This document shows positions 1-62,768 of a DNA stretch of 64,000 nucleotides, one piece after another. Source of the stretch: an uncultured Candidatus Saccharibacteria bacterium (GTDB taxonomy: Bacteria > Patescibacteriota > Minisyncoccia > Phycocordibacterales > DATDWN01); contig CAYVNM010000002.1 of NCBI GenBank assembly GCA_964453075.1, positions 4,279 to 68,278 of the forward strand. The letters run 5' to 3'. Within the stretch, counting starts at the first letter, position 1. Each line of letters starts with the position of its first letter. The notes under the pieces were generated by a model. The model had not been told where the DNA came from, ran no database searches, and worked only from the letters and a program-made list of their open reading frames with translations. Both the position numbers and the translations under genes were made by a program.

Positions 1-1598
<1,598 letters not shown>

Positions 1599-5995: not shown

Positions 5996-6439
5996 TTACT
6001 GACAGGCTGTACCTGTGGTACCTAAAGTTGTAACATTAGCTGCTGTTTGACCCTTTGATGCTCCAGTACTGTCTACACACCATGTTGTAAATGTTCCTTC
6101 TGTAGCTTTCAAAACAGAATAAGCTGCCCATGCTCCAGCTGCATCATTACAATCATTGGTAGCAGTACCAATAGTTCCACCACCAGCAGTAGCTGCAGCC
6201 GCCATAGCTGCTACAACTTGAGTATTAGTACAGACGTTATCATAACTTCCGCTGTCGTTATCATAAACCAGCTCAGCCTGTGCACGAATGTTAGCCAAGT
6301 TTGATTTAACAGCCGAATTTGAACCTTTAGCTCTCGCCGTATTCAAGCTAGCTAATACCACAGACGAAAGAACACCTATAATCGCTATAACCACGAGAAG
6401 TTCGATGAGTGTAAAACCTTTATTTAATCTTGTTTTCAT
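5996..6439 (-). CDS. Type IV pilin, paralogue 2.
   Basis: MKTRLNKGFTLIELLVVIAIIGVLSSVVLASLNTARAKG...WCVDSTG...TACQ. Confidence 0.85.
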   Translation of the reverse strand: MKTRLNKGFTLIELLVVIAIIGVLSSVVLASLNTARAKGSNSAVKSNLANIRAQAELVYDNDSGSYDNVCTNTQVVAAMAAAATAGGGTIGTATNDCNDAAGAWAAYSVLKATEGTFTTWCVDSTGASKGQTAANVTTLGTTGTACQ

Positions 6440-6598
6440 AAAAAAATGATTTATTAAAATATTAAAATCAATAATATCAATTATACTAGATATACTGGTT
6501 ATTTATCAAAACACCTGTTGATAACTGTTTGCGACTTATAAACTCAAAGAACCGGCAAAAACCGGTTCTTTGAGTAACAAATTTAAAGAAAATAATTC

Positions 6599-22241: not shown

Positions 22242-22637
22242 GGGGATGCCAGGTTTAGACAAGTAAATTCTTTGACAATGTGCATGGTAGAGCTCTAGAA
22301 TCTCTTTAAACCTCTAGAAAATGTAAATGCAAAAAATACATTTACAAAAGCAGTTCCTTCACCATTTATGGCGAATGGATTTGCTCTCGCTTTCGCTTAA
22401 TCTTTTAGATTAAACCAAAACGGCGGCTATTCTCTGAAGTCTGTTACGGGAAATAGTTGATATATCTTCGGACTAGGAATCGTTTTAGTTTCGAGACGCT
22501 TCTGAACTAAAGAAAACTGGACTTTTATTTATTTTGTAAGCTTAAAGAATAAAAGTTGAGAAAAATAAAACTTACTACACCATGTAGAAACATTATCAAA
22601 ACTTATTTGCACGGGGGTTCAATTCCCCCCTTCTCCA
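22242..22637 (+). ncRNA. ssrA: tmRNA (ssrA).
   Basis: 5' GGGGATGCCAGGTTTAGAC. Tag reading frame GCG AAT GGA TTT GCT CTC GCT TTC GCT TAA (22371-22400) gives ANGFALAFA-stop. 3' tRNA-like T-arm GGGGG-TTCAATT-CCCCC plus acceptor CTTCTCC-A. G3:U wobble as in tRNA-Ala. Followed by a long hairpin terminator (22629-22684). Adjacent to smpB. Confidence 0.85.
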
Positions 22638-22920
22638 CAATAACGAGCCACCCGCAAGGGTGGTTTTCGTTATTGTGGAGAAGGAGCAAACCAGACGGTT
22701 CTGGTTTGCGTGGGGATTTGAAAACCTTTGATAGTTTTTTGTGAGTTTGCGAAACAAAAAACAGAAAAGTTATACTGAAACTGTAAGTTTCGATTCCCCC
22801 TATAATAGATATTTTGTGAGCGGCAACGAACAAAATATTCCTGACCTAATCCACCCTTCTCCACAACTATTGACATTAATTAATTGGTGTGATATCTTGT
22901 GTAAAGGAGGGAGATTTGCG

Positions 22921-34731: not shown

Positions 34732-35274
34732 CTAGCCGATTAGCTTATTCAGGACCGCCGCCCAGTCCTTAGACTCAGCCTTCCGACCAGCATCCTGGAA
34801 AAATCGCAGGACGGCACCGTTCGCGAAGCGGAATGAATCACGTATTCTGGATGATTCCTCCAGAATAGACCCTTCCGCATTCTGGTGATGGTGGTTGGAG
34901 AAAACCACCGCCACAAACCTGGTCCCAGCTGCTATTGCCGACAGGGCAAGCTGGTAACCCACCAACTTCTCAGTGCCCCAGTCCGAATTGTGATAAAATC
35001 CATCAAATGGCATCATGCCGTCCGACAACACGACATCCCACGGAACACCAGCACTGAAATCCTCGTAATGCTTGTTGCTCCAGGACGAATAGCTGCCAAT
35101 CGAACGACCTGCCGTGAGATTGGCAACCTTGCGGTTCTCCACCGAATCTCCCCGACTAATGAGCATGTTGCCCATGTCGTAACTTGCAGTGGTGAACACG
35201 TCGTGTGACCCCCCCAATTGGGCGATGGCCCCATCGAGGTTTTCCTGCCGATCGTCAATAACCAAGATCTTCAT
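34732..35274 (-). CDS. GC-rich inserted gene A: divergent CheY-like receiver-domain protein. Unknown function. Lies inside the spc operon between rplE and rpsZ.
   Basis: MKILVIDD...DVVLSDGMMPFDG...RFVAVVFSNHHH receiver-like motifs with long insertions. Extended -10 TGTATAAT, SD AAGGAG-ctacc-ATG. Composition clearly above background. Confidence 0.55.
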   Translation of the reverse strand: MKILVIDDRQENLDGAIAQLGGSHDVFTTASYDMGNMLISRGDSVENRKVANLTAGRSIGSYSSWSNKHYEDFSAGVPWDVVLSDGMMPFDGFYHNSDWGTEKLVGYQLALSAIAAGTRFVAVVFSNHHHQNAEGSILEESSRIRDSFRFANGAVLRFFQDAGRKAESKDWAAVLNKLIG

Positions 35275-35461
35275 GGTAGCTCCTTGGCCCCTAGGGCCGG
35301 AAAAAGTGGTTGTCAAACTGTCCACCTAAAATTATACACCTATTTAATCTCTTTGTCAATTGTTTTTGCCGATACCCACCCTCTAAACAGCAAAATAGCC
35401 CTATATTTAGGGCTATTTTTGCAAAATCCAAGGGGAGTCCTTGGATTTTAGTAATTTTCTG

Positions 35462-48643: not shown

Positions 48644-50785
48644 TTATTTTCTACTTTCTACAATAGTCTTCTCAACGTTTGGTGGTACAACCTCGTAATG
48701 ATCAAACTCCATCATCACACTTCCTCTACCCTGTGTCATAGAACGAATATCAGTAGTGTAACCAAACATTTCTGACAATGGAACTTTGGCATGAATAACT
48801 CTGAGCATTCCCCTCTCTTCCATTCCTTCAATTTGACCTCTCTTTCCTGAAAGTGATCCTGTAACATCACCCATGAACTGTTCTGGCATGATAGCATCAA
48901 CTTTCATAATTGGTTCTAGAATAACTGGACGAGCTCTTTTGGCTGCGTCCTGGAACGCCTGTGAAGCTGCGATCTTGTAAGCGATTTCTGAAGAGTCCAC
49001 ATCGTGATATGAACCGAACGTAAGCTCACAAGAAACATTTACCATTTTGTACCCAGCAACAATTCCTCGGTCCATAGCCTCGTGAACACCCTTCTCAACT
49101 GCTGGAATAAACTCTTGAGGAATGACACCTCCTTTGATTGAATCAATAAACTCAAAATCTTCGTATCTCTTAACGTTCTTTGGAATTTTTGCCCCTTCTT
49201 CTATTTTTTCAAGAGGTTTGATTGTAAGTTTAACGTGACCATACTGACCCTTACCTCCAGTTTGCTTGATATATTTATGTTCTGCTTCTGCTGTACCCAA
49301 AATAGTCTCTCTGTATGCCACCTGTGGTTTACCAACATTAACCTCCACACTGAACTCTCTCTTCATACGATCAACCATAATCTCAAGGTGAAGCTCTCCC
49401 ATTCCTGAAACTATAGTTTCTCCTGTTTCTGTGTTTGAAGAAACAACAAATGTTGGGTCTTCATCAGAAAGTTTTTTCAAAGCCATACCCATTTTCTCTT
49501 GATCTGCTTTTGTCTTTGGCTCAATACGTAAAGCAACCACGGGAGCCACAAATTTAATTGGGTCTAGAACTATTGGTTTGTTTTCATCACATAGAGTGTG
49601 TGATGTTTTTGCGGATTTCAATCCCACAGCCGCAGCAATCTCTCCAGCAAAAACTTTTTTTACCTCCTCTCTTTTGTCTGCCTGAAGCCTCACAATACGT
49701 CCAAGTCTTTCTTTCTCTCCTGTTGTTGAGTTATATATGTATGTTCCTGCTTCTATTGTTCCAGAATAAACACGGAAGAATGTAAGCTGACCAACGAAAG
49801 GATCGTTTTGCAATTTGAAAGCGAGTGCAGCAAAAGGTTCTTCATCAGAAGCATGTCTCACTGTTTCCTCACCTGTCTTTGGATCCAAACCTCTTACTGG
49901 AGGAATATCTAGAGGAGATGGTAAGTATTCTACAACCGCATCCAAAACAAGCTGGATTCCTTTGTTTTTCAATGCTGAACCGGCCATAACAGGAACAAGC
50001 TTTACTTCCAAACACGCTTTTCTAAGAGTTTTCTTCAACTCTTCTATAGTAGGCTCATTTCCATTTAGAAACATTTCCATTTGAGCATCATCTTGCTCTA
50101 CAATCTTTTCAATAAGTTCTGCTCGGAATTTCTTTGCCTCGTCTAGATACTCTGCAGGAATTTCTGCCTCACGAATATTCATACCCATATTTCCCTCAAA
50201 GTAGTAGGCCTTCATTTTCAAAAGATCTATCACACCCTCAAATTTATCTTCCAAACCAATAGGAATTTGAAGTCTAACTGCATTTTTTGTAAGTCTGTCT
50301 AAAATAGATTCGTATGATCTCTCAAAAGACGCACCTGTTCGATCAAGTTTGTTTATTAGACAGATTCTAGGAACATTACCATCATCCGCGTATCTCCAGT
50401 TTGTTTCAGACTGAGGTTCCACACCAGCCACACCGTCAAACACAACAACCGCGCCGTCCAAAACTCGGAGACTTCTTTTCACTTCAGCTGTGAAGTCAAT
50501 GTGCCCAGGAGTATCAATGATATTGAAACGATACTGTGGTTTACCGTCTTTTGGCATGTAAGTAGGATTCCAAAAACAAGTAATAGCAGCGGCGGTAATA
50601 GTAATACCTCGCTCTCTTTCCTGTTCCATCCAGTCAGTCACTGTCTCGCCTTCGTGTACCTCACCTATTTTGTGTGTCATTCCAGTATAGAAAAGCACAC
50701 GTTCTGATGTAGTTGTCTTACCAGCATCAATGTGAGCAATAATACCGAAGTTTCTAACTCTCTCCAATGGATAATCGCGGTTCAT
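48644..50785 (-). CDS. fusA: Elongation factor G (start at [25 protein letters not shown]).
   Basis: [17 protein letters not shown]. Confidence 0.9.
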
Positions 50786-50906
50786 AATAAAATAATAATT
50801 TAATAAATAAAAAAGCCCTAGGGCAATCACACAAAACTATATACTAAAAGAACTTCTGTTGCAATACAGATTAGACTGTGTTAGAAATGCCTTCAGGAGG
50901 TACCCA

Positions 50907-51152
50907 ATGAAAGTGCTGAAAATGTTCGAGGTTGCTGAAGCATTGTTCCGAGTTGGTGGAGGTGAACACAGATTCCAACTCGGAATCCCCGTCACCGTCA
51001 AAAACACCAGTACGGGAGAAGAAATCAGAATCGTCGGAATTGAAGTCAACGAGACCTACAAGGATGTCGTGCATCTGTACGCCGAAAACAGCATCCAAGC
51101 TCTCAGCCCCGACAACTTCGAGATCGTCGGACCAGCGCCAGACGCCCAGTAG
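50907..51152 (+). CDS. GC-rich gene F (81 aa, unknown).
   Basis: Promoter TTGCAA-17-TAGAAAT, SD AGGAGGtacccaATG, terminator aaggccccgagtaattaggggcct-tt (51157-51183). Confidence 0.5.
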   Translation: MKVLKMFEVAEALFRVGGGEHRFQLGIPVTVKNTSTGEEIRIVGIEVNETYKDVVHLYAENSIQALSPDNFEIVGPAPDAQ

Positions 51153-51202
51153 AACCAAGGCCCCGAGTAATTAGGGGCCTTTCGACTACATCAAAAAATA
51201 TT

Positions 51203-51394
51203 TTACTTTTGTTTCAAGGCATTAACTTCTCTCTCTAGATCCTCTAGTCTTTCGTGATCAGATTTATGATGGATGAGAGCTTTTTGTATGAATGGCCAAA
51301 TAAGAAGACCTATAATAACATCAAATATAATAATGAGCATAAGCTCAAAATACCAGTGAGCCGGATCTTTAACTAGATGTAGAAATTCCTCCAT
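51203..51394 (-). CDS. Small membrane protein, hypothetical.
   Basis: One TM helix (LMLIIIFDVIIGLLIWPFI). AT-rich. Confidence 0.3.
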   Translation of the reverse strand: MEEFLHLVKDPAHWYFELMLIIIFDVIIGLLIWPFIQKALIHHKSDHERLEDLEREVNALKQK

Positions 51395-51527
51395 GCAAAC
51401 ATAATAATACTTTTGAGAGTTTTATACAAAAATCCAATGGTTGCCTTTTGGTTTTGTATATACTTACCCGTCAACCCACTGATGGACAGAAAAAAGTTTA
51501 GAATAAACAAGAAGAACTACGTGATAT

Positions 51528-51878
51528 TTACGTAGTTCTCTTTGAGAAATGTACCAGGTGTTCAAGAAGCAGTGAAAGTCTTACGGGCACACCCGCAGCG
51601 TCAGCGATACCTGCAAGGTATCTGAGCTCGTCACCTGTAAGCGTTTGATCCGGCGCCAGAACTCGCTTCCCCAACTTTGAAAGAAAAGCCAGGCGATCGA
51701 CTGGAACGCCAAGAACCTCAGCAACGTGCTCTAGGCGTTTCTTCGGTATGGGGCGCGTACCGTTCAGTACCTGCTCGTACATGAACGCAGAGAAACCAAG
51801 TAGTTTACCAAACTCTCCCTTAGTCTCACCGCGCTCAACTCTTTTTGCCTCAAGTAACTTCTCAATCTCACTCTTCAT
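51528..51878 (-). CDS. GC-rich gene G: XRE-family helix-turn-helix transcriptional regulator.
   Basis: GETKGEFGKLLGFSAFMYEQVLNGTRPIPKKRLEHVAEVLGVPVDRLA is an HTH_XRE motif. Promoter TTGACA-17-TAGTTT, SD AGGAGGgttctaacaATG. Confidence 0.6.
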   Translation of the reverse strand: MKSEIEKLLEAKRVERGETKGEFGKLLGFSAFMYEQVLNGTRPIPKKRLEHVAEVLGVPVDRLAFLSKLGKRVLAPDQTLTGDELRYLAGIADAAGVPVRLSLLLEHLVHFSKRTT

Positions 51879-51973
51879 TGTTAGAACCCTCCTGCTCAAA
51901 AACTACCACAGCGACAAAAGCTGTCAAATTTTATGAGAACTTTTGAATAACCTCAAAATAAGCTAAAAAAGTT

Positions 51974-52088
51974 TTCACAATTTGAATGAAACCCGAGGCG
52001 GACAAGAAAAATGACCCGAGCCGTACTGTCGTACGGTGAAGGGTCATTTTTTCGTAGTCCAACAAAGGAGTTCGTCAAATTTGGAAAC
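51974..52088. repeat. Intergenic repeat element R2 (immediately 3' of the rpsG stop).
   Basis: ttcacaatttgaa...ggacaagaaaaatgacccgagccgtactgtcgtacggtgaagggtcattttttcgtagtcc...gttcgtcaaatttggaaac. Hairpin with A- and T-runs gives a bidirectional terminator. Confidence 0.6.
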
Positions 52089-52091
52089 TTT

Positions 52092-56303: not shown

Positions 56304-57759
56304 GTAAATATTTTAACATGAAAATAATAGCTAAATAAACCATAATTAAAACCCCAAAAGAAAATGCTGGTAGATTTAGTGCACCAAACGGAATACTTGC
56401 TCCGATGTGAACTATTGTGAGCTGATACCACAAAAGAATGTAGGTAAAAAATGCCGGAATAAAAGAAAGATAAATAGAGAATAGTCCCAAAACACCCGTT
56501 ATAAATCCCAAAGACATTGTGAGTGGTATGGTACCCAAAATCAAAACGTTTACAGGTAGAGAAACCAGAGAAAGTACGCCCATATTGTAAATAAGGTATG
56601 GCAAAACTGTAATCTGGGTAGCTATGGTAGAAGAAACTATTTCTTGTAAGCCAAACCTTTCTGTTATCCAAGATAAATACGGGGTTATTTGGGGAGTAAC
56701 AAAAATCAATCCAATAGTGGCCAAGACAGAAAGTTGGAAAGAAGGATCAAAAGCAAGCAAAAGCGGATTCGGAGCGAGCATCAAGACAATAGTAAAACCA
56801 AAGACTCTGCTGGCTTTGTAATCCCTATTAAATTTTTTGGCAAACAAGGCAACCAAAACCATGATGGCTGCCCTCCAGGCACTAGCCCCTCCCCCAGAAA
56901 GAATAGTAAACAAAATTATACTAACAGCTCCAAAACCAAAGGACATATTCTTTGGTAAAAATTTAAAAATCGCCATTATACTACTAGCCACAATAGCAAT
57001 GTTGTAACCAGACAAAACAACAATATGAGAGACTCCTGTTTTTTGAAATTCTGTAAGTAGTTCTTTACCCAAACTTTGTTTCGTACCAAGGAGAAGCCCC
57101 GCAAGCAGACTAGACTCCGGCTCTGATAGTGCGTCATGGATAGAATCGGTGAATTTTCTTTTTGTTTTGAAAAGAAGTGTTTTAACAAAACTTCCGTGAC
57201 CACTTGATACAAACTCCACATTTGTAAAGCGACTTGTATACCACACACCTCGCACACGAAGATACCCCTTATAGTCAAAAACTCTTCCATTGGTTTCAAA
57301 TTCCCCTGGCTCCTCTAGCACAACTTTCGCCCTGACCTTATCTCCGTAAGAAAACTCTGGATATATTGGAACTGTTACTAATATTTTTTCTCGAACAGAA
57401 ACAGTTGTCGTACCGTTCACTACACTTCTTACCCCGATAGTTAATTTGGTATTAGTTTCTCTAACATCTGGTTCACCGACAATTATTCCTTCTATATTTA
57501 TTTGCTTTCCAACGTATTTATCTAACTGAGAATCGGTATACAAATCAGAAACCATAATTCTTCCAACACCACACAAAACTCCAAGCACAATAAATAAAAT
57601 TATATTTAAAACCTTGCGACTATTTTCATCTACAAAATACCTGTATATAAAAAACAGTAGAACCAAACAAATCAAAGCAACAAAAAATCCGACGTTAATC
57701 GGAAAAATTGAACCCAGTGTTATGCCCCCTATGAATCCTAAGACCAGGGAGATCACCAT
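56287..57759 (-). CDS. comEC: ComEC/Rec2 competence membrane channel (DUF4131 plus competence domain), lacking the MBL domain.
   Basis: 490 aa, polytopic. GVSHIVVLSGYNIAIV competence-domain motif. Confidence 0.7.
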   Translation of the reverse strand: MVISLVLGFIGGITLGSIFPINVGFFVALICLVLLFFIYRYFVDENSRKVLNIILFIVLGVLCGVGRIMVSDLYTDSQLDKYVGKQINIEGIIVGEPDVRETNTKLTIGVRSVVNGTTTVSVREKILVTVPIYPEFSYGDKVRAKVVLEEPGEFETNGRVFDYKGYLRVRGVWYTSRFTNVEFVSSGHGSFVKTLLFKTKRKFTDSIHDALSEPESSLLAGLLLGTKQSLGKELLTEFQKTGVSHIVVLSGYNIAIVASSIMAIFKFLPKNMSFGFGAVSIILFTILSGGGASAWRAAIMVLVALFAKKFNRDYKASRVFGFTIVLMLAPNPLLLAFDPSFQLSVLATIGLIFVTPQITPYLSWITERFGLQEIVSSTIATQITVLPYLIYNMGVLSLVSLPVNVLILGTIPLTMSLGFITGVLGLFSIYLSFIPAFFTYILLWYQLTIVHIGASIPFGALNLPAFSFGVLIMVYLAIIFMLKYLHDQKN

Positions 57760-57760
57760 A

Positions 57761-58435
57761 TTATTCCGTAAATTCTTTTATTATTTCTTCCTCATCAGCA
57801 GGAGAAGTAGATTTTTTATAACGGGCCCCAGAAACCCCATTTACCCGTGCTTTGCAGTCATCCCAAGTTTTATGAACTTTTATCTCCCCATCTACCATAC
57901 TTATATAAGAATAGGCTTTGCTTTTACTTTTTGTCTTACTCTTTGAATCTTTTGATTGTTTAATAGAAACATCAATTCCGTATCTTTCTTTAGATCCGTT
58001 ATACAAAACAACAGGTGCCCTGTCAGCAAAAGAAGTAGCGATTACGTCACACCTTTCGTTCCCTGCCGTGCCAGAATGCCCTTTTATTAATTTCCAATCA
58101 ATTATTTTGTGAGAAGTTAATTCAATTAATCTCTCCCACAAATCCTTATTTAAAACATCCTCCTTTTGTGATGTTTTCCATTTGTTTTTCTTCCAACCTT
58201 TGACCCAACGGGTTGCACCATTCAGAACATAAGCTGAATCAGTATATATGGTCATCTCCCTCTCAGACAAAACCGACTCCAAGGCAGATATAACAGCTGT
58301 GAGTTCCATGCGGTTGTTTGTCGTATGATCTTCTCTACCACCAAGTTCCATGGCTGAATCGTCAGTAATAACAATAGCACCCCATCCGCCAGGACCAGGA
58401 TTGCCTCTCGCGCTACCATCTGTAAAAATAATCAT
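57761..58435 (-). CDS. rnhA: Ribonuclease HI with a roughly 70-aa Lys/Ser-rich C-terminal extension.
   Basis: MIIFTDGSARGNPGPGGWGAIV...TDSAYV...HSGTAGNERCD are catalytic DEDD-type motifs. Confidence 0.8.
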   Translation of the reverse strand: MIIFTDGSARGNPGPGGWGAIVITDDSAMELGGREDHTTNNRMELTAVISALESVLSEREMTIYTDSAYVLNGATRWVKGWKKNKWKTSQKEDVLNKDLWERLIELTSHKIIDWKLIKGHSGTAGNERCDVIATSFADRAPVVLYNGSKERYGIDVSIKQSKDSKSKTKSKSKAYSYISMVDGEIKVHKTWDDCKARVNGVSGARYKKSTSPADEEEIIKEFTE

Positions 58436-58454
58436 TCATTGATTATACCAAATA

Positions 58455-58757
58455 ACTTTTTATATACGAAAAACGGCGCCCTCTTTCGAGAACGCCGTGG
58501 AAGTATGGGGGTTGGTTTACGGCTGTATCCCCCGGGGTCGCCAGCCCTTAGCCTACGTGTGCGCCGGGTCTTCCAGCCCAACGACTGAATCTACCACGGT
58601 GGCATTATATTTTAACTCTTAGAAAGATCTTTGAATCCGGACATTTCGCTTATAAGCTGGCTGTTCCGGCAGGCCAAGGAGACTTGAGCCCTGATTCTCC
58701 CAACAGGTCATATTTCTGGCCTTATTTCTGCGACACCCCTTTCGGTTTGTCTTTCGG
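58455..58757 (-). ncRNA. Candidate structured ncRNA (about 300 nt), identity unresolved (RNase P RNA, SRP RNA or novel).
   Basis: Near-consensus promoter TTGACA-17-TATACT on the minus strand (58764-58792). Intrinsic terminator cggcgccctctttcgagaacgccg plus a T-run at the 3' end (58455-58486). GC-rich. No ORF longer than 33 aa and no SD. Confidence 0.5.
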
Positions 58758-58807
58758 TTTATTTATCTTGTATAAGTATATCACAGTACTATATTTCTGT
58801 CAAGCGA

Positions 58808-60559
58808 TTAAAATATGTCCACTATTCGGAGGCGGAGTTCTGGGAAATTACGAAATTGTGACTTTTCGAGAGTAGCAACTAAATTTATACTGTCCCCCAC
58901 ACCGAGAGGCACCATAAATTTGTCTGGTGTTGAAAAAAAAGCGATAGCTGTGACATCAGATCCTTTTGAGTTTCGGAATTTTAATTCCAAATGATTTTGT
59001 TCTTTGCCAAAAAGTTTTACGTTACTTATTTTTATATTTTCAAAAAGAAAAAGTGGTTTTGGATTATCTAAACCAAAAGGAGCAAATTTCTCTATTAGTC
59101 TATATGTATCCCAACTGACTTCATCCAAGGATAACTTTTTATCTACCAGGATATCTTCTATTAATTTATTCTCCTTCACCATTTCTAAAAAAGCTTCGTT
59201 CAACCTGTCCTCAAGTGTATGAATGTTTTCCTGCATAACAGAAAATCCACCTGCACCTTTGTGTCCACCATAGTCCACAAAAACATCTTTGACCTTTTCC
59301 ATGAGACAAACAACATCTGTGTCTCCACCGGCGCGACACGAACCTTTTATGATTGTACTTCCATTACTCCCTTCCCTTCCCCAGAAAAAAACTGGACGAT
59401 TGTGCTCATCAGAGAAACTGTTTGCAACGAGTCCTAAGAGACTAGGCTTCCATTCTGGATTTCCAAAAACTAAAACATTTTTCATTGTATCTCCTCTTTC
59501 TTCAATTCTTTTTTTTATCTCTTTGACCATACTTCCCACCAAACCTTTTCTCTCATCATTTTTATTATTCAAATGCTCAGCCAAAACTCCGGCTGACACT
59601 TCATCCGTAGTAGACATCAGAGAAAACGCGTCATGAGGAATACCCATTCTAGATGCTGCATTGATACGAGGGGTGATCATGAAAGCAATGTCATCCTCTG
59701 TTGCTGTTTGTTGGTTTATTTTAAGTAATGAAAAAAGTTTCTGCAGTCCAACTCGTGGACTTTTCTGCAAAACTTTTAATCCGTAAAAAGACAGGACTCT
59801 GTTCTCCCCAACGAGCGGTACCATATCAGAAAGAGTAGCGAGCCCCACCATATCGAGTAACCATTTTTCCTGACCTTCCTTCCAATTAAATTTTTCTGCA
59901 AAGTTTTTGGATTTTATTATTGCTTGTACAACTTTAAAAATAACCCCAGCACCACATAACATTTTTTCTGGATAATCACATCCTTTTTGTTTTGGATTTA
60001 TTATGGCAAATGCTTTTGGTAATTTTTTTCCGGGAATATGATGATCGGTGATTATAACATCAATACCAAAACTATTGGCCAGATCAACTTGTGTAACATC
60101 AGTAATTCCACAATCAATAGTAATGATTAGTTTCACATTTTGAGAATTTAAATTCTCTATCGCTTCGTCATTCAAACCAAAACCCTCTTCGTTACGTAGC
60201 GGAATATAATTTACAAAATTATTGAAATTTATTTTTTTAAAGAAGTCGTGCAAAACAACAGCACCTGGAATTCCATCTGCATCATAATCACTATATATTC
60301 CAATTTTTTCATTTTCATTTATTGCCTTCAAGATTCTATTCACAACTTTTTTCATGTCCTTCAAAAGATAAGGGTCGTGAAGATGTAACAAATAATCAGG
60401 GTTGAGAAACTGTTCAGAACTCTCTATATCACTTATTCCCCGAGCACATAACATAGACCTTACAAGCGGATGATAAGGTTTCAAAGCCTCATCAACGTTC
60501 TGTGTAACAGGATTTCGTAAGGCATATTTTTTCATCCCGTTAGAGATAGGTCTCGCCAT
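58808..60559 (-). CDS. recJ: Single-stranded-DNA-specific exonuclease RecJ.
   Basis: DHH family motifs (DYDADG, ITDHH, GGHKGAGG). The start may be the second ATG (MKKYALRN). Confidence 0.85.
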   Translation of the reverse strand: MARPISNGMKKYALRNPVTQNVDEALKPYHPLVRSMLCARGISDIESSEQFLNPDYLLHLHDPYLLKDMKKVVNRILKAINENEKIGIYSDYDADGIPGAVVLHDFFKKINFNNFVNYIPLRNEEGFGLNDEAIENLNSQNVKLIITIDCGITDVTQVDLANSFGIDVIITDHHIPGKKLPKAFAIINPKQKGCDYPEKMLCGAGVIFKVVQAIIKSKNFAEKFNWKEGQEKWLLDMVGLATLSDMVPLVGENRVLSFYGLKVLQKSPRVGLQKLFSLLKINQQTATEDDIAFMITPRINAASRMGIPHDAFSLMSTTDEVSAGVLAEHLNNKNDERKGLVGSMVKEIKKRIEERGDTMKNVLVFGNPEWKPSLLGLVANSFSDEHNRPVFFWGREGSNGSTIIKGSCRAGGDTDVVCLMEKVKDVFVDYGGHKGAGGFSVMQENIHTLEDRLNEAFLEMVKENKLIEDILVDKKLSLDEVSWDTYRLIEKFAPFGLDNPKPLFLFENIKISNVKLFGKEQNHLELKFRNSKGSDVTAIAFFSTPDKFMVPLGVGDSINLVATLEKSQFRNFPELRLRIVDIF

Positions 60560-60779
60560 AGTTCGTACAATGATTACTACCGAAATTAATTTATAATATT
60601 ATAATTACCACTTTGTTATTTCCCGTGAATCTCTAACGGGATTCATTTCATTAGTGTAACACACTAATATAGACATAAATAACAACAAATATGATAAAAT
60701 ATTGTCTATGGATCCCGTTAGAAGTCTCAGTGACTCTGATCACGGATTGCAACTTTTATAAACATTTTAATTCAATATT

Positions 60780-61196
60780 ATGTTAACAAACACTGATACT
60801 TCTAACGGGACAAGCAATTGTATATTTTGCAAAATAGTGAAAGGAGATCTTCCTTCACATCGGGTTTATGAGGATGATAATTTTTTGGCATTTCTAGATA
60901 TCAACCCTGAGTCTCCTGGACACACTTTAGTTATACCGAAAGAACACTACCGCTGGGTATGGGATGTTCCAAATGCCGGAGAGTATTTTGAAGTTACCAA
61001 GAAAATTGCACTGGCACAGAAAAAAGCTTTCAACACTGATTTGGTTATTTCTAGGGTTGTAGGAGAGGAAGTTCACCATGCACACATCTGGGTATTCCCT
61101 GCTTCTTTCAACAAAGGAGAATTTGAAAAGACGGCAGGTGACAAAAAAGACTTCGCTGGAAATGCAGAAAAAATAAAAAAGGAATTGCAAAACTAA
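60780..61196 (+). CDS. HIT-family (histidine triad) hydrolase.
   Basis: CIFCKIV...PESPGHTLVIPKEHY...HHAHIWVFP. Confidence 0.8.
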   Translation: MLTNTDTSNGTSNCIFCKIVKGDLPSHRVYEDDNFLAFLDINPESPGHTLVIPKEHYRWVWDVPNAGEYFEVTKKIALAQKKAFNTDLVISRVVGEEVHHAHIWVFPASFNKGEFEKTAGDKKDFAGNAEKIKKELQN

Positions 61197-62201: not shown

Positions 62202-62630
62202 CTAGCAAGCGGGCTTGCGAACCCCGAGAAAACGATCGTCCTTGTACCAGCTACCTCTCCACACACCAAGCCCTCGCAAAGAGGAGCAGAACTTGCTGAG
62301 ATATGCCACACAAAGGTCAGTGTGGTCCCAGCAAAATGAGCCCAAAGCGACAATCACGAATTCTCGCTGGATGTGGGGATACTTCGACCCAAAATCCAGA
62401 AGTTCGTGGATGGTTGCCGGTCGGAATCCCAACCTGTCTATCTCCGAGATAGCCTCACTGCGCGAGATGAACCTGTTGAGGTGTATGAGCTCGGCGCTCA
62501 CTTGCACTTCGCCAGTTCCCGTCTTGGGGAAATTCGCCTCGGTGATGCGAAAGTCAACCTTATCGTAATTTCCAGCCGCAACCATGTCGGCCACGGTAAG
62601 ATTGTGGTTAACAACGAGTTCGTACACCAT
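62202..62630 (-). CDS. GC-rich gene B (142 aa, unknown).
   Basis: Extended -10 TGTATAAT, SD AAGGAGatataccATG, and a double-hairpin terminator at 62100-62200. The 5' region is homologous to that of gene A. Confidence 0.5.
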   Translation of the reverse strand: MVYELVVNHNLTVADMVAAGNYDKVDFRITEANFPKTGTGEVQVSAELIHLNRFISRSEAISEIDRLGFRPATIHELLDFGSKYPHIQREFVIVALGSFCWDHTDLCVAYLSKFCSSLRGLGVWRGSWYKDDRFLGVRKPAC

Positions 62631-62768
62631 GGTATATCTCCTTGGCTCTGATAGCCGAAGTTGTTGTCAAACTGTTCTGAGTACTATTATACACCTAAAT
62701 AGATAGAATGTCAAGGATTTTATGGTAAAAATGGCAAAAAAGACCTAAAATAGGCCATTTTGCTAAAA

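Follow-up and report, generated by a model that had tools for sequence, protein, structure and literature searches.

What is encoded between recJ and rnhA in an uncultured Candidatus Saccharibacteria bacterium, where a GC-rich unit on the minus strand starts at a promoter, ends at a terminator and contains no evident protein gene? The unit lies in a 64,000-nucleotide (nt) stretch of contig CAYVNM010000002.1, the whole of which was analyzed and is referred to here as the window. An earlier note on this DNA had offered two answers: a divergent RNase P or signal recognition particle (SRP) RNA, or a novel noncoding RNA (ncRNA). The second is supported by the absence of any matching Rfam family together with a conserved pseudoknotted structure, and the unit is very probably a genuine, previously unassigned structured RNA of ~300 nt. 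It is best explained as an independently transcribed accessory gene, one of many alternative small cassettes found in the recJ–rnhA spacer of this Paceibacteria/Zambryskibacteria-like clade. The best explanation overall, held with considerable reservation, is an accessory folded RNA of ~300 nt with a portable 3'-handle module.

Gene signals and fold of the RNA

The recJ–rnhA spacer spans 372 nt of the minus strand (58436-58807), and the observation in the earlier note is confirmed. The interval proposed there for the unit, 58455-58757, covers the transcript and misses the promoter, which lies just outside it and reaches 58803. The -35 hexamer TTGACA (58798-58803) begins 5 nt past the recJ stop codon, and a 17-nt spacer separates it from an extended -10 element, TGATATACT (58775-58783). 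As the note had suggested, this sigma70 promoter is close to the consensus, matching it at 11 of 12 positions in addition to the TG, and it is the top-ranked site within 57500-61000. Promoter-like sites are not enriched overall (9 observed vs 11.4 expected), and the loose pattern TTGAC[AT]-16..18-TA[TA][AC][ATC]T has only seven matches across the entire 64 kb. A variant contig from the same strain (L001) reads TATAAT at the -10 position. Similar promoters lie upstream of the RNA in the homologous loci L031, L015, L059 and L029. Transcription of the gene is predicted from these signals and would start near 58768. At the other end is the strong intrinsic terminator that had also been described (58469-58498, minus strand). 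It consists of an 11-bp stem (58498-58473) with seven G-C pairs, a GAAA loop and a run of five U residues (TTTTT in the DNA), and its folding energy was calculated as -19 kcal/mol. Every copy of the RNA has retained an intact promoter and terminator.

No credible open reading frame (ORF) had been seen in the unit, and the coding tests agree. The longest frames in the transcript encode 30 amino acids (aa; 58619-58711) and 49 aa (58432-58581, with a TTG start). In L015 and L059 a stop breaks the 30-aa frame at codon 3, and in L031 one does so after 19 codons. Translations of the region matched nothing among 5.8 billion proteins, and the concatenated open translations of the 3' module described below found no protein at E ≤ 10. 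The possibility of a small protein was rejected because the 30-aa frame is not conserved and the protein searches were empty.

The excess of G and C over the surroundings was also confirmed, with a GC fraction of 0.50-0.57 over 58475-58700 against 0.376 for the window (37.6%). The minus strand folds better than dinucleotide shuffles (z = -3.76, none of 100 shuffles being as good), whereas the plus strand does not (z = -0.63). Transfer RNAs (tRNAs) in the window are 53-59% GC, so structure alone can raise GC. Nevertheless, the transfer-messenger RNA (tmRNA) gene at 22242-22640, which encodes an unusually long tag (AKNTFTKAVPSPFMANGFALAFA), is 36% GC, the same as the genome. Structured RNAs here are thus not all GC-rich, which makes the 50-57% GC of the present RNA somewhat more notable. 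A foreign GC signature, as the note had proposed, is plausible.

In the window the predicted transcript opens with a 5' leader of ~55 nt (58712-58768, minus strand) containing tandem AAACCGAAAG. No homologue has this leader, and in the homologues the conserved core starts 10-25 nt past the promoter. The core begins with a 5' module (58637-58711) composed of an H-type pseudoknot, S1 plus S2, followed by a hairpin, H3. In S1, CCUG (58704-58707) can pair with CAGG (58690-58693), which lies within the loop of S2. The latter pairs GGGAGA (58696-58701) with UCUCCU (58677-58682). H3 (58662-58669 with 58637-58643) is formed around a conserved GCCAG/GCnAAA internal loop, and both S2 and H3 show compensatory changes. 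In the alignment of the 5' module (A6, four sequences), 94% of cells are paired and five pairs are changed on both sides, compared with 32-63% pairing in slid controls. Between the two modules is a variable middle (58595-58636) that forms a different hairpin in each homologue.

The 3' module (58497-58594, 98 nt, minus strand) is a nested double pseudoknot. Its first hairpin, Pa (CGUYGRG/CYCGGCG, 58577-58583 with 58562-58568), presents the loop GGAAG (58570-58574). This loop forms the pseudoknot PKa with CUUCC (58499-58503), 70 nt downstream and directly before the terminator. Inside PKa, the helix Pb pairs GGCU (58550-58553) with AGCC (58521-58524) and encloses both a G-run and the short helix Pc (58545-58547 with 58535-58537), which closes a CUGGCGA loop. 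The G-run (GGGGG, 58529-58533) pairs in turn with CCCCC (58507-58511) to form PKb, reached via the A-rich strand AAACCAA. Aligning the seven distinct sequences left 93% of 187 cells paired, with compensatory changes in five pairs distributed over Pa, PKa, Pc and PKb. Examples are GGUGGG/CCCACC and GAGGG/CCCUC in PKb, UGAAG/CUUCA in PKa and GGC/GCC in Pc. The covariation score was reached by none of 500 column shuffles, and sliding the partners dropped pairing to 39-58%. In addition, RNAalifold run on a plain MAFFT alignment independently recovered Pa, with compensatory pairs, and Pb. Nucleotides in the unpaired junctions are often invariant (GCA after Pa, GGCUAAGG, GAUACAGCC and AAACCA). The terminator stem begins right after CUUCC in six of the seven copies; in the seventh, L062, there is a 3-nt gap. 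The features generally looked for in an independent structured ncRNA gene, namely a promoter, a terminator, no conserved ORF and compensatory structure, are thus all present at the level of sequence.

The 3' module and the transcripts that carry it

Homologues were sought with nhmmer and with a covariance model of the 3' module (R1). The model scored 111.8 bits in the window and 71-100 bits in all seven other copies, among them L069, L031, L062, L059, L029 and L015. Elsewhere in 759 kb of sequence nothing exceeded 16 bits, and the rest of the window holds no second copy. When 241 million metagenome contigs were scanned for a strict signature, two of the matches were true copies and two were due to chance. 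The chance matches, L060 and L061, were discarded, as they lie in high-GC sequence and were not scored by R1; that in L061 falls in what appears to be coding sequence.

Three unrelated bodies precede the 3' module. In the window, L031, L015 and L059 it follows the 5' pseudoknot module, while in L029 the 5' part is structured and unlike that of the window. The third body, in the rpoC–ftsK spacer of L062 and L069, is a 77-aa protein gene. There the unit has its own TTGACT-17-TATACT promoter and a Shine-Dalgarno sequence, followed by the ORF and, last, by the 3' module. The ORF is genuinely coding: among six homologues, codon positions 1, 2 and 3 differ 277, 254 and 567 times. Other homologues of the gene end in a plain terminator (L070-72, L083), in another structured element (L073-75) or in a partial version (L082). 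Since some of them make do with a plain terminator, the 3' module is an optional 3' add-on.

Some further features of the 77-aa gene were recorded. It was located at L062 1027-1260, L069 3064-3300 and L070 1806-2039, and in L073-75, L082 and L083, and is 60-70% GC in genomes of roughly 40% GC. The protein has no Pfam or PHROGs match and no relative on viral contigs. A second shared element, CGGAGGGGCAYGUCG...GGAGACC plus a UUGCCUGAAAGGCAG hairpin, is present in the 3' untranslated region (UTR) of L069 and L073-75. The window itself has neither the 77-aa protein nor the 3' module at 50831-52091, an accessory islet upstream of a 728-aa ORF (48644-50830) whose size would be compatible with ftsK. 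The islet includes an ORF of 119 aa (123 aa from a TTG start), which by eye we take to be of the helix-turn-helix, XRE-like type. Also in the islet are a putative membrane protein of 63 aa, likewise recognized by eye, and, on the opposite strand, a GC-rich ORF of 97 aa.

A constant end on varied transcripts could be a scaffold for a specific effector or chaperone protein, with specificity supplied by the variable 5' bodies and the whole working as a ribonucleoprotein. The logic would resemble that of Hfq-type and 3'-UTR-derived small RNAs (sRNAs), or of guide RNAs with a constant terminator-proximal scaffold. The identical type of module on unrelated 5' bodies, one of them a messenger RNA (mRNA), is consistent with this, as are the many invariant nucleotides in unpaired junctions. 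However, the flanks vary by locus and contain no conserved protein gene, and no RNA-guided nuclease or chaperone gene was seen beside any copy. Moreover, nothing about the 5' bodies is guide-like, as they are either coding or long and structured. A scaffold of this kind is considered unlikely.

Another possibility is that the 3' module is a ligand-binding aptamer fused to the terminator, which in the manner of a riboswitch would tune read-through from the strong promoter into the gene downstream. The compact pseudoknotted fold with conserved junctions lies directly upstream of an intrinsic terminator, the U-tracts of L031 and L029 are weak, and the downstream ORF in L031 has a Shine-Dalgarno sequence and no obvious promoter. 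The HMP-PP (thiS) riboswitch is a precedent for an aptamer embedded in a terminator (PMC6478431). The likeness to it and to pseudoknot aptamers with loop-to-tail pairing extends to the combination of H-type and loop-tail pseudoknots, an A-rich strand (here AAACCAA) and the contiguous terminator. The present RNA differs from these in having no conserved class of downstream gene, separate promoters for the downstream genes, no alternative pairing that could be found and no Rfam match.

The genes that follow the module are functionally unrelated and form no coherent set, comprising rnhA, a 69-aa membrane protein, an ATP-binding cassette (ABC) exporter, ftsK and a PaaX-like gene. In the window, rnhA has its own extended -10 element (TGGTATAAT, 58442-58450, minus strand), outside the RNA and 6 nt before the rnhA ATG at 58435, and is therefore independent of read-through from the RNA. 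The arrangement of TGnTATAAT and the rnhA ATG is present in both empty and filled spacers, and on this ground a role of the RNA as an rnhA leader was rejected. Similarly, ftsK is preceded by its own -10, which lies a few nucleotides from the ATG whether or not the module is upstream. The terminator forms a self-contained hairpin, and inspection of the seven sequences by eye found no conserved anti-terminator pairing. The sole candidate, also seen by eye, would pair the 3' CGGCGC of Pa with the 3' strand of the terminator, over 6 bp in the window and 3-5 bp elsewhere. Given the separate promoters and the unrelated downstream genes, and with no conserved anti-terminator seen by eye, a classical riboswitch or leader role is unlikely, and the aptamer-terminator proposal as a whole is regarded as improbable.

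Comparison with housekeeping RNAs and the contents of the recJ–rnhA spacer

All 4227 families of Rfam 15 were scanned with cmscan. The gathering score was applied to the window and to 11 related loci, and a relaxed E ≤ 10 to three targets: the region 58300-58950, the homologous unit L069, and an unrelated unit in L005 (see below). For the unit and its counterparts these scans gave nothing but chance hits of the terminator type. At the gathering score, the window matched only tmRNA and three tRNAs. The region 58300-58950 gave nothing at E ≤ 10 except a terminator look-alike. In particular, RNase P RNA (RF00010, RF00011), SRP and 6S RNA were not found, so that the clean match to a housekeeping RNA that the note had allowed for did not appear. 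The 3' module of L069 likewise matched no family at E ≤ 10. For the Candidate Phyla Radiation (CPR), Lui et al. 2021 (PMC8172020) found that RNase P RNA came to light in ten of 35 circular genomes once the RF00010 threshold was lowered to 5 bits, and that many CPR RNase P RNAs are without the UGG motif or P12-P17. The threshold of the RF00010/RF00011 scan used here was stricter than those 5 bits (PMC8172020). Because CPR RNase P RNAs can escape default thresholds, the negative scan was not relied on alone.

A highly diverged RNase P, SRP or 6S RNA of this genome, missed by the Rfam models, would fit the size, strong promoter, terminator and pseudoknots seen here. RNase P RNA of type A (RF00010), CPR forms included (PMC8172020), is likewise ~300 nt long, pseudoknotted and GC-rich relative to the genome, and has its own promoter and terminator. 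The known need for a 5-bit RF00010 threshold in CPR (PMC8172020) adds to the case, and two stretches in the window, GCGAAAUGUCCGG and ACAGCCAGCUUAU, resemble the conserved regions CR-I and CR-V. Nevertheless, these stretches lie next to each other, their order is the reverse of that in RNase P RNA, and L031, L015 and L059 have not conserved them; at the CR-like position L059 reads AAAAUUCCC and L031 reads GCCAGACUAAU. The P4 helix, in which CR-I (GGAAAGUCC) would pair with CR-V (ACAGAAnCCGGCUUA), was not found, nor was a P1 helix joining the ends, and the self-contained terminator at the 3' end of the RNA also counts against P1. All helices with covariation support are local. A circularly permuted RNase P, traced by eye through AUGAC, ACAGCCAGCUUAU, GAAAUGUCCGG and GUAAACCAACCCC, was rejected as well: the stretches are not conserved, and their order does not fit a simple permutation. 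For SRP, the window reads CCGGAA..CAGCC where helix-8 domain IV, with its GNAR tetraloop and conserved symmetric loop, might be sought, and this is not conserved in L015 and L059. For 6S RNA, a rod with a central bubble would be expected, whereas the supported structure is multi-domain with local pseudoknots.

The distribution points the same way. RNase P RNA should be essential and single-copy across relatives; judged at the orthologous recJ–rnhA spacers, the present RNA is absent from most relatives with RecJ 68-92% identical. Where RecJ and RnhA are 92% and 98% identical, an unrelated RNA takes its place. Just two true copies came from the strict metagenome scan, and the 3' third of the RNA is also located in an mRNA 3' UTR. 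Patchy presence, replacement and rarity are not the behavior of an essential housekeeping RNA. With no Rfam match, local folds, sporadic occurrence and one third of its length shared with an mRNA, the RNA does not support the divergent RNase P or SRP RNA put forward in the earlier note, and a housekeeping RNA of any of these kinds is extremely improbable.

The 3' module, or the whole RNA, might instead be catalytic, for instance self-cleaving, and represent a new class of RNA that processes its own transcript. At about 100 nt, the nested double pseudoknot with conserved junctions is typical of small ribozymes, and the module lies at the boundary of a variable body and a constant tail. Against this, no riboswitch or self-cleaving ribozyme family (hammerhead, twister, twister-sister, pistol, hatchet, HDV-like, glmS) was matched at E ≤ 10 in the region or in L069. 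The topology also appears to differ from that of the HDV, twister, pistol and glmS ribozymes, and no cleavage-site signature could be deduced from seven sequences. A hammerhead-like CUGAUG..GAAA..GUC was considered and dropped: the window and L031 read CUGUUG, without the essential A, and no model matched. A ribozyme appears improbable.

The distribution was established from 55 loci around RecJ relatives, fetched from species-representative genomes. Judged by the names that these relatives bear, the organism belongs to the Patescibacteria (Paceibacteria/Zambryskibacteria-like). In about 40 of the 55 loci recJ and rnhA are syntenic, separated by about 20 to 2500 nt. The RNA or its 3' module was found in few recJ–rnhA spacers, namely L001-L003, all of the same strain, L031, L015, L029 and L059, the last of which was recovered through a metagenome pattern scan. 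Spacers next to the RecJ relatives P0003, P0005, P0007, P0008 and P0089 were empty or otherwise occupied and yielded no further homologue. The RNA is accessory and, in the genomes and contigs covered, rare: seven distinct copies were found, all within a single CPR clade.

In the window, the minus-strand genes recJ (58808-60559) and rnhA (57761-58435, an RNase H by Pfam) flank the RNA gene directly. Most relatives have an empty spacer of about 20 nt, which consists of the recJ stop, TTTGTTATAAT and the ATG of an apparently leaderless rnhA 6-8 nt further on. The nearest relatives, L004 and L005 (RecJ 92% and 87%, RnhA 98% and 93% identical), carry a promoter homologous to that of the window, with 83-85% identity over 60 nt. 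Behind it is an unrelated ORF-less RNA of ~400 nt (L005 3388-3795, L004 about 6040-6460). This unit, strongly structured (z = -4.2) and without an Rfam match at E ≤ 10, adds a second candidate for an unassigned ncRNA. When the window is compared with L005, homology covers the promoter, breaks off ~15 nt beyond the start site and returns at the T-run of the terminator; the RNA body alone has been exchanged.

Occupants of the site were catalogued in the window (58436-58807) and in the orthologous spacers of L004-L031, L050, L057, L064, L066 and L084-L087. Filled spacers hold unrelated units, each with its own promoter and terminator. They include ORF-less units of 100-140 nt (L050, L025, L011, L012, L006), a 29-aa hydrophobic peptide (L022, L064), small membrane proteins (L018, L031, L004), a 123-aa protein (L014, L017), a TSCPD-domain protein on the opposite strand (L010, L013, L016, L017) and an ABC exporter (L015). 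The TSCPD domain was the sole match when the small proteins were searched against Pfam and PHROGs. An element of ~230 nt (L057 7750-8040, L085 4268-4529) has perfect 20-bp terminal inverted repeats (GTTCCTCGAATAATACCTCC ... GGAGGTATTATTCGAGGAAC) and could be an insertion resembling a miniature inverted-repeat transposable element, or a long hairpin RNA.

Two other GC-rich units on the minus strand of the window share the cassette style of the RNA gene, both with a near-consensus TTGACA-17-TGTATAAT promoter. The unit at 62202-62714 has a 142-aa ORF (62202-62630) followed by two hairpins. That at 34732-35359 has a 197-aa ORF (34732-35325) with a GC fraction of 0.54.

Such a hotspot raises the possibility that the structure, as DNA or as RNA, serves the mobility of the cassette, or else is a remnant in decay. 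The unit would then be a small selfish insertion without cellular function. The many unrelated small units in the spacer, one with 20-bp terminal inverted repeats, and the variable presence among close relatives are compatible with this. However, folding stability is limited to the transcribed strand, and compensatory changes with G-U intermediates argue for selection on the RNA. Promoter and terminator are preserved throughout, and no terminal repeats or target duplications are visible at the borders. In addition, nothing similar was found in phage, plasmid or viral collections: blastn against 50,697 phage and 72,556 plasmid records gave no match, and in four pattern scans of viral contigs any matches were due to chance and lay within coding sequence. 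An origin from phage or plasmid was rejected on the basis of these searches, and a selfish insertion is judged very improbable.

Possible function and related systems

How might an accessory RNA with a portable 3' handle work? The 3' module and the terminator hairpin would form one compact 3'-terminal fold, with coaxial stacking between them. This fold would act in cis on whichever transcript it ends, and the handle may shield the end from exonucleases, dock a protein, or both. The RNA as a whole would be folded and trans-acting, with the 5' module as its cassette-specific working part. The 3'-handle mechanism specifically is put forward tentatively.

Several points weigh against this explanation. 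A plain terminator hairpin already protects 3' ends, so that the need for such an elaborate fold is questionable. For the ~35 invariant positions, an active site, a protein site or a ligand pocket would be at least as good an explanation. The analysis identified no partner protein, and the flanking genes differ between loci. The structure itself has weaknesses: only seven distinct sequences lie behind the pair counts, the alignment register was set by hand to the proposed structure with N-padding, and Pb and S1 are invariant and hence without covariation support. Moreover, full-length RNAalifold prefers a long-range pairing of CCUUGGCC in the 5' module with GGCUAAGG in the 3' module. If this pairing is real, the modules interact and are not independent. 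It also appears in the minimum-free-energy fold, and was not adopted because it shows no compensatory change and is broken in L059.

The logic of the RNA most resembles that of sRNAs, including 3'-UTR-derived sRNAs, that share a terminator-proximal module with mRNAs, a comparison by analogy. The Hfq-dependent sRNAs of enterobacteria have a constant terminator-proximal 3' module, and 3'-UTR-derived sRNAs share their 3' end with an mRNA. Here, too, the same 3' module and terminator are found on a stand-alone ncRNA and on an mRNA, and the 5' parts vary. Nevertheless, where those sRNAs have an A/U-rich stretch and a U-tailed hairpin, the present module is a 98-nt nested double pseudoknot, and no seed region, target or chaperone was identified for it.

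Other systems share single features with the RNA. Viral exoribonuclease-resistant RNAs block 5'-to-3' decay and so protect the RNA downstream. They too are compactly folded, are closed by a pseudoknot that joins a hairpin loop to a distal strand, and act at transcript ends. In contrast, the fold described here is at the extreme 3' end beside the terminator, and its resistance is hypothetical. The raiA motif, OLE, ROOL and GOLLD RNAs are likewise stand-alone, patchy in distribution and endowed with several pseudoknots, and their function cannot be deduced from context. The present RNA differs from them in matching none of their models, in being far rarer (seven copies found) and restricted to one CPR clade, and in its visible modularity. 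From RNase P RNA of type A it is set apart by the missing model match, the absence of P1, P4 and conserved CR-I/CR-V, its sporadic occurrence and the presence of one third of it in an mRNA 3' UTR. Literature searches for a nested double pseudoknot abutting a terminator found no described counterpart.

By these comparisons the RNA is a new family, and its 3' module possibly a new kind of portable RNA domain. A bolder proposal would see in it a new class of portable, terminator-stacked double-pseudoknot domain, possibly acting as a new aptamer, ribozyme or nuclease-resistant 3' cap and shuffled by CPR bacteria between coding and noncoding transcripts, with the spacer as a landing pad where small-RNA and peptide cassettes are exchanged behind a fixed promoter. 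This is considered doubtful.

CPR bacteria have tiny genomes and, to our knowledge, almost no characterized regulatory RNAs. That a streamlined genome keeps a strongly promoted RNA with several pseudoknots suggests that it likely does something specific. The 98-nt domain with its defined helices is a concrete object for assay, and the 77-aa gene with and without the module offers a natural comparison. A GC-rich promoter-to-terminator unit in a CPR genome should not be presumed to be a degenerate RNase P RNA. More broadly, a hotspot of cassette exchange such as the recJ–rnhA spacer may be a general route by which CPR bacteria come by small RNAs and peptides.

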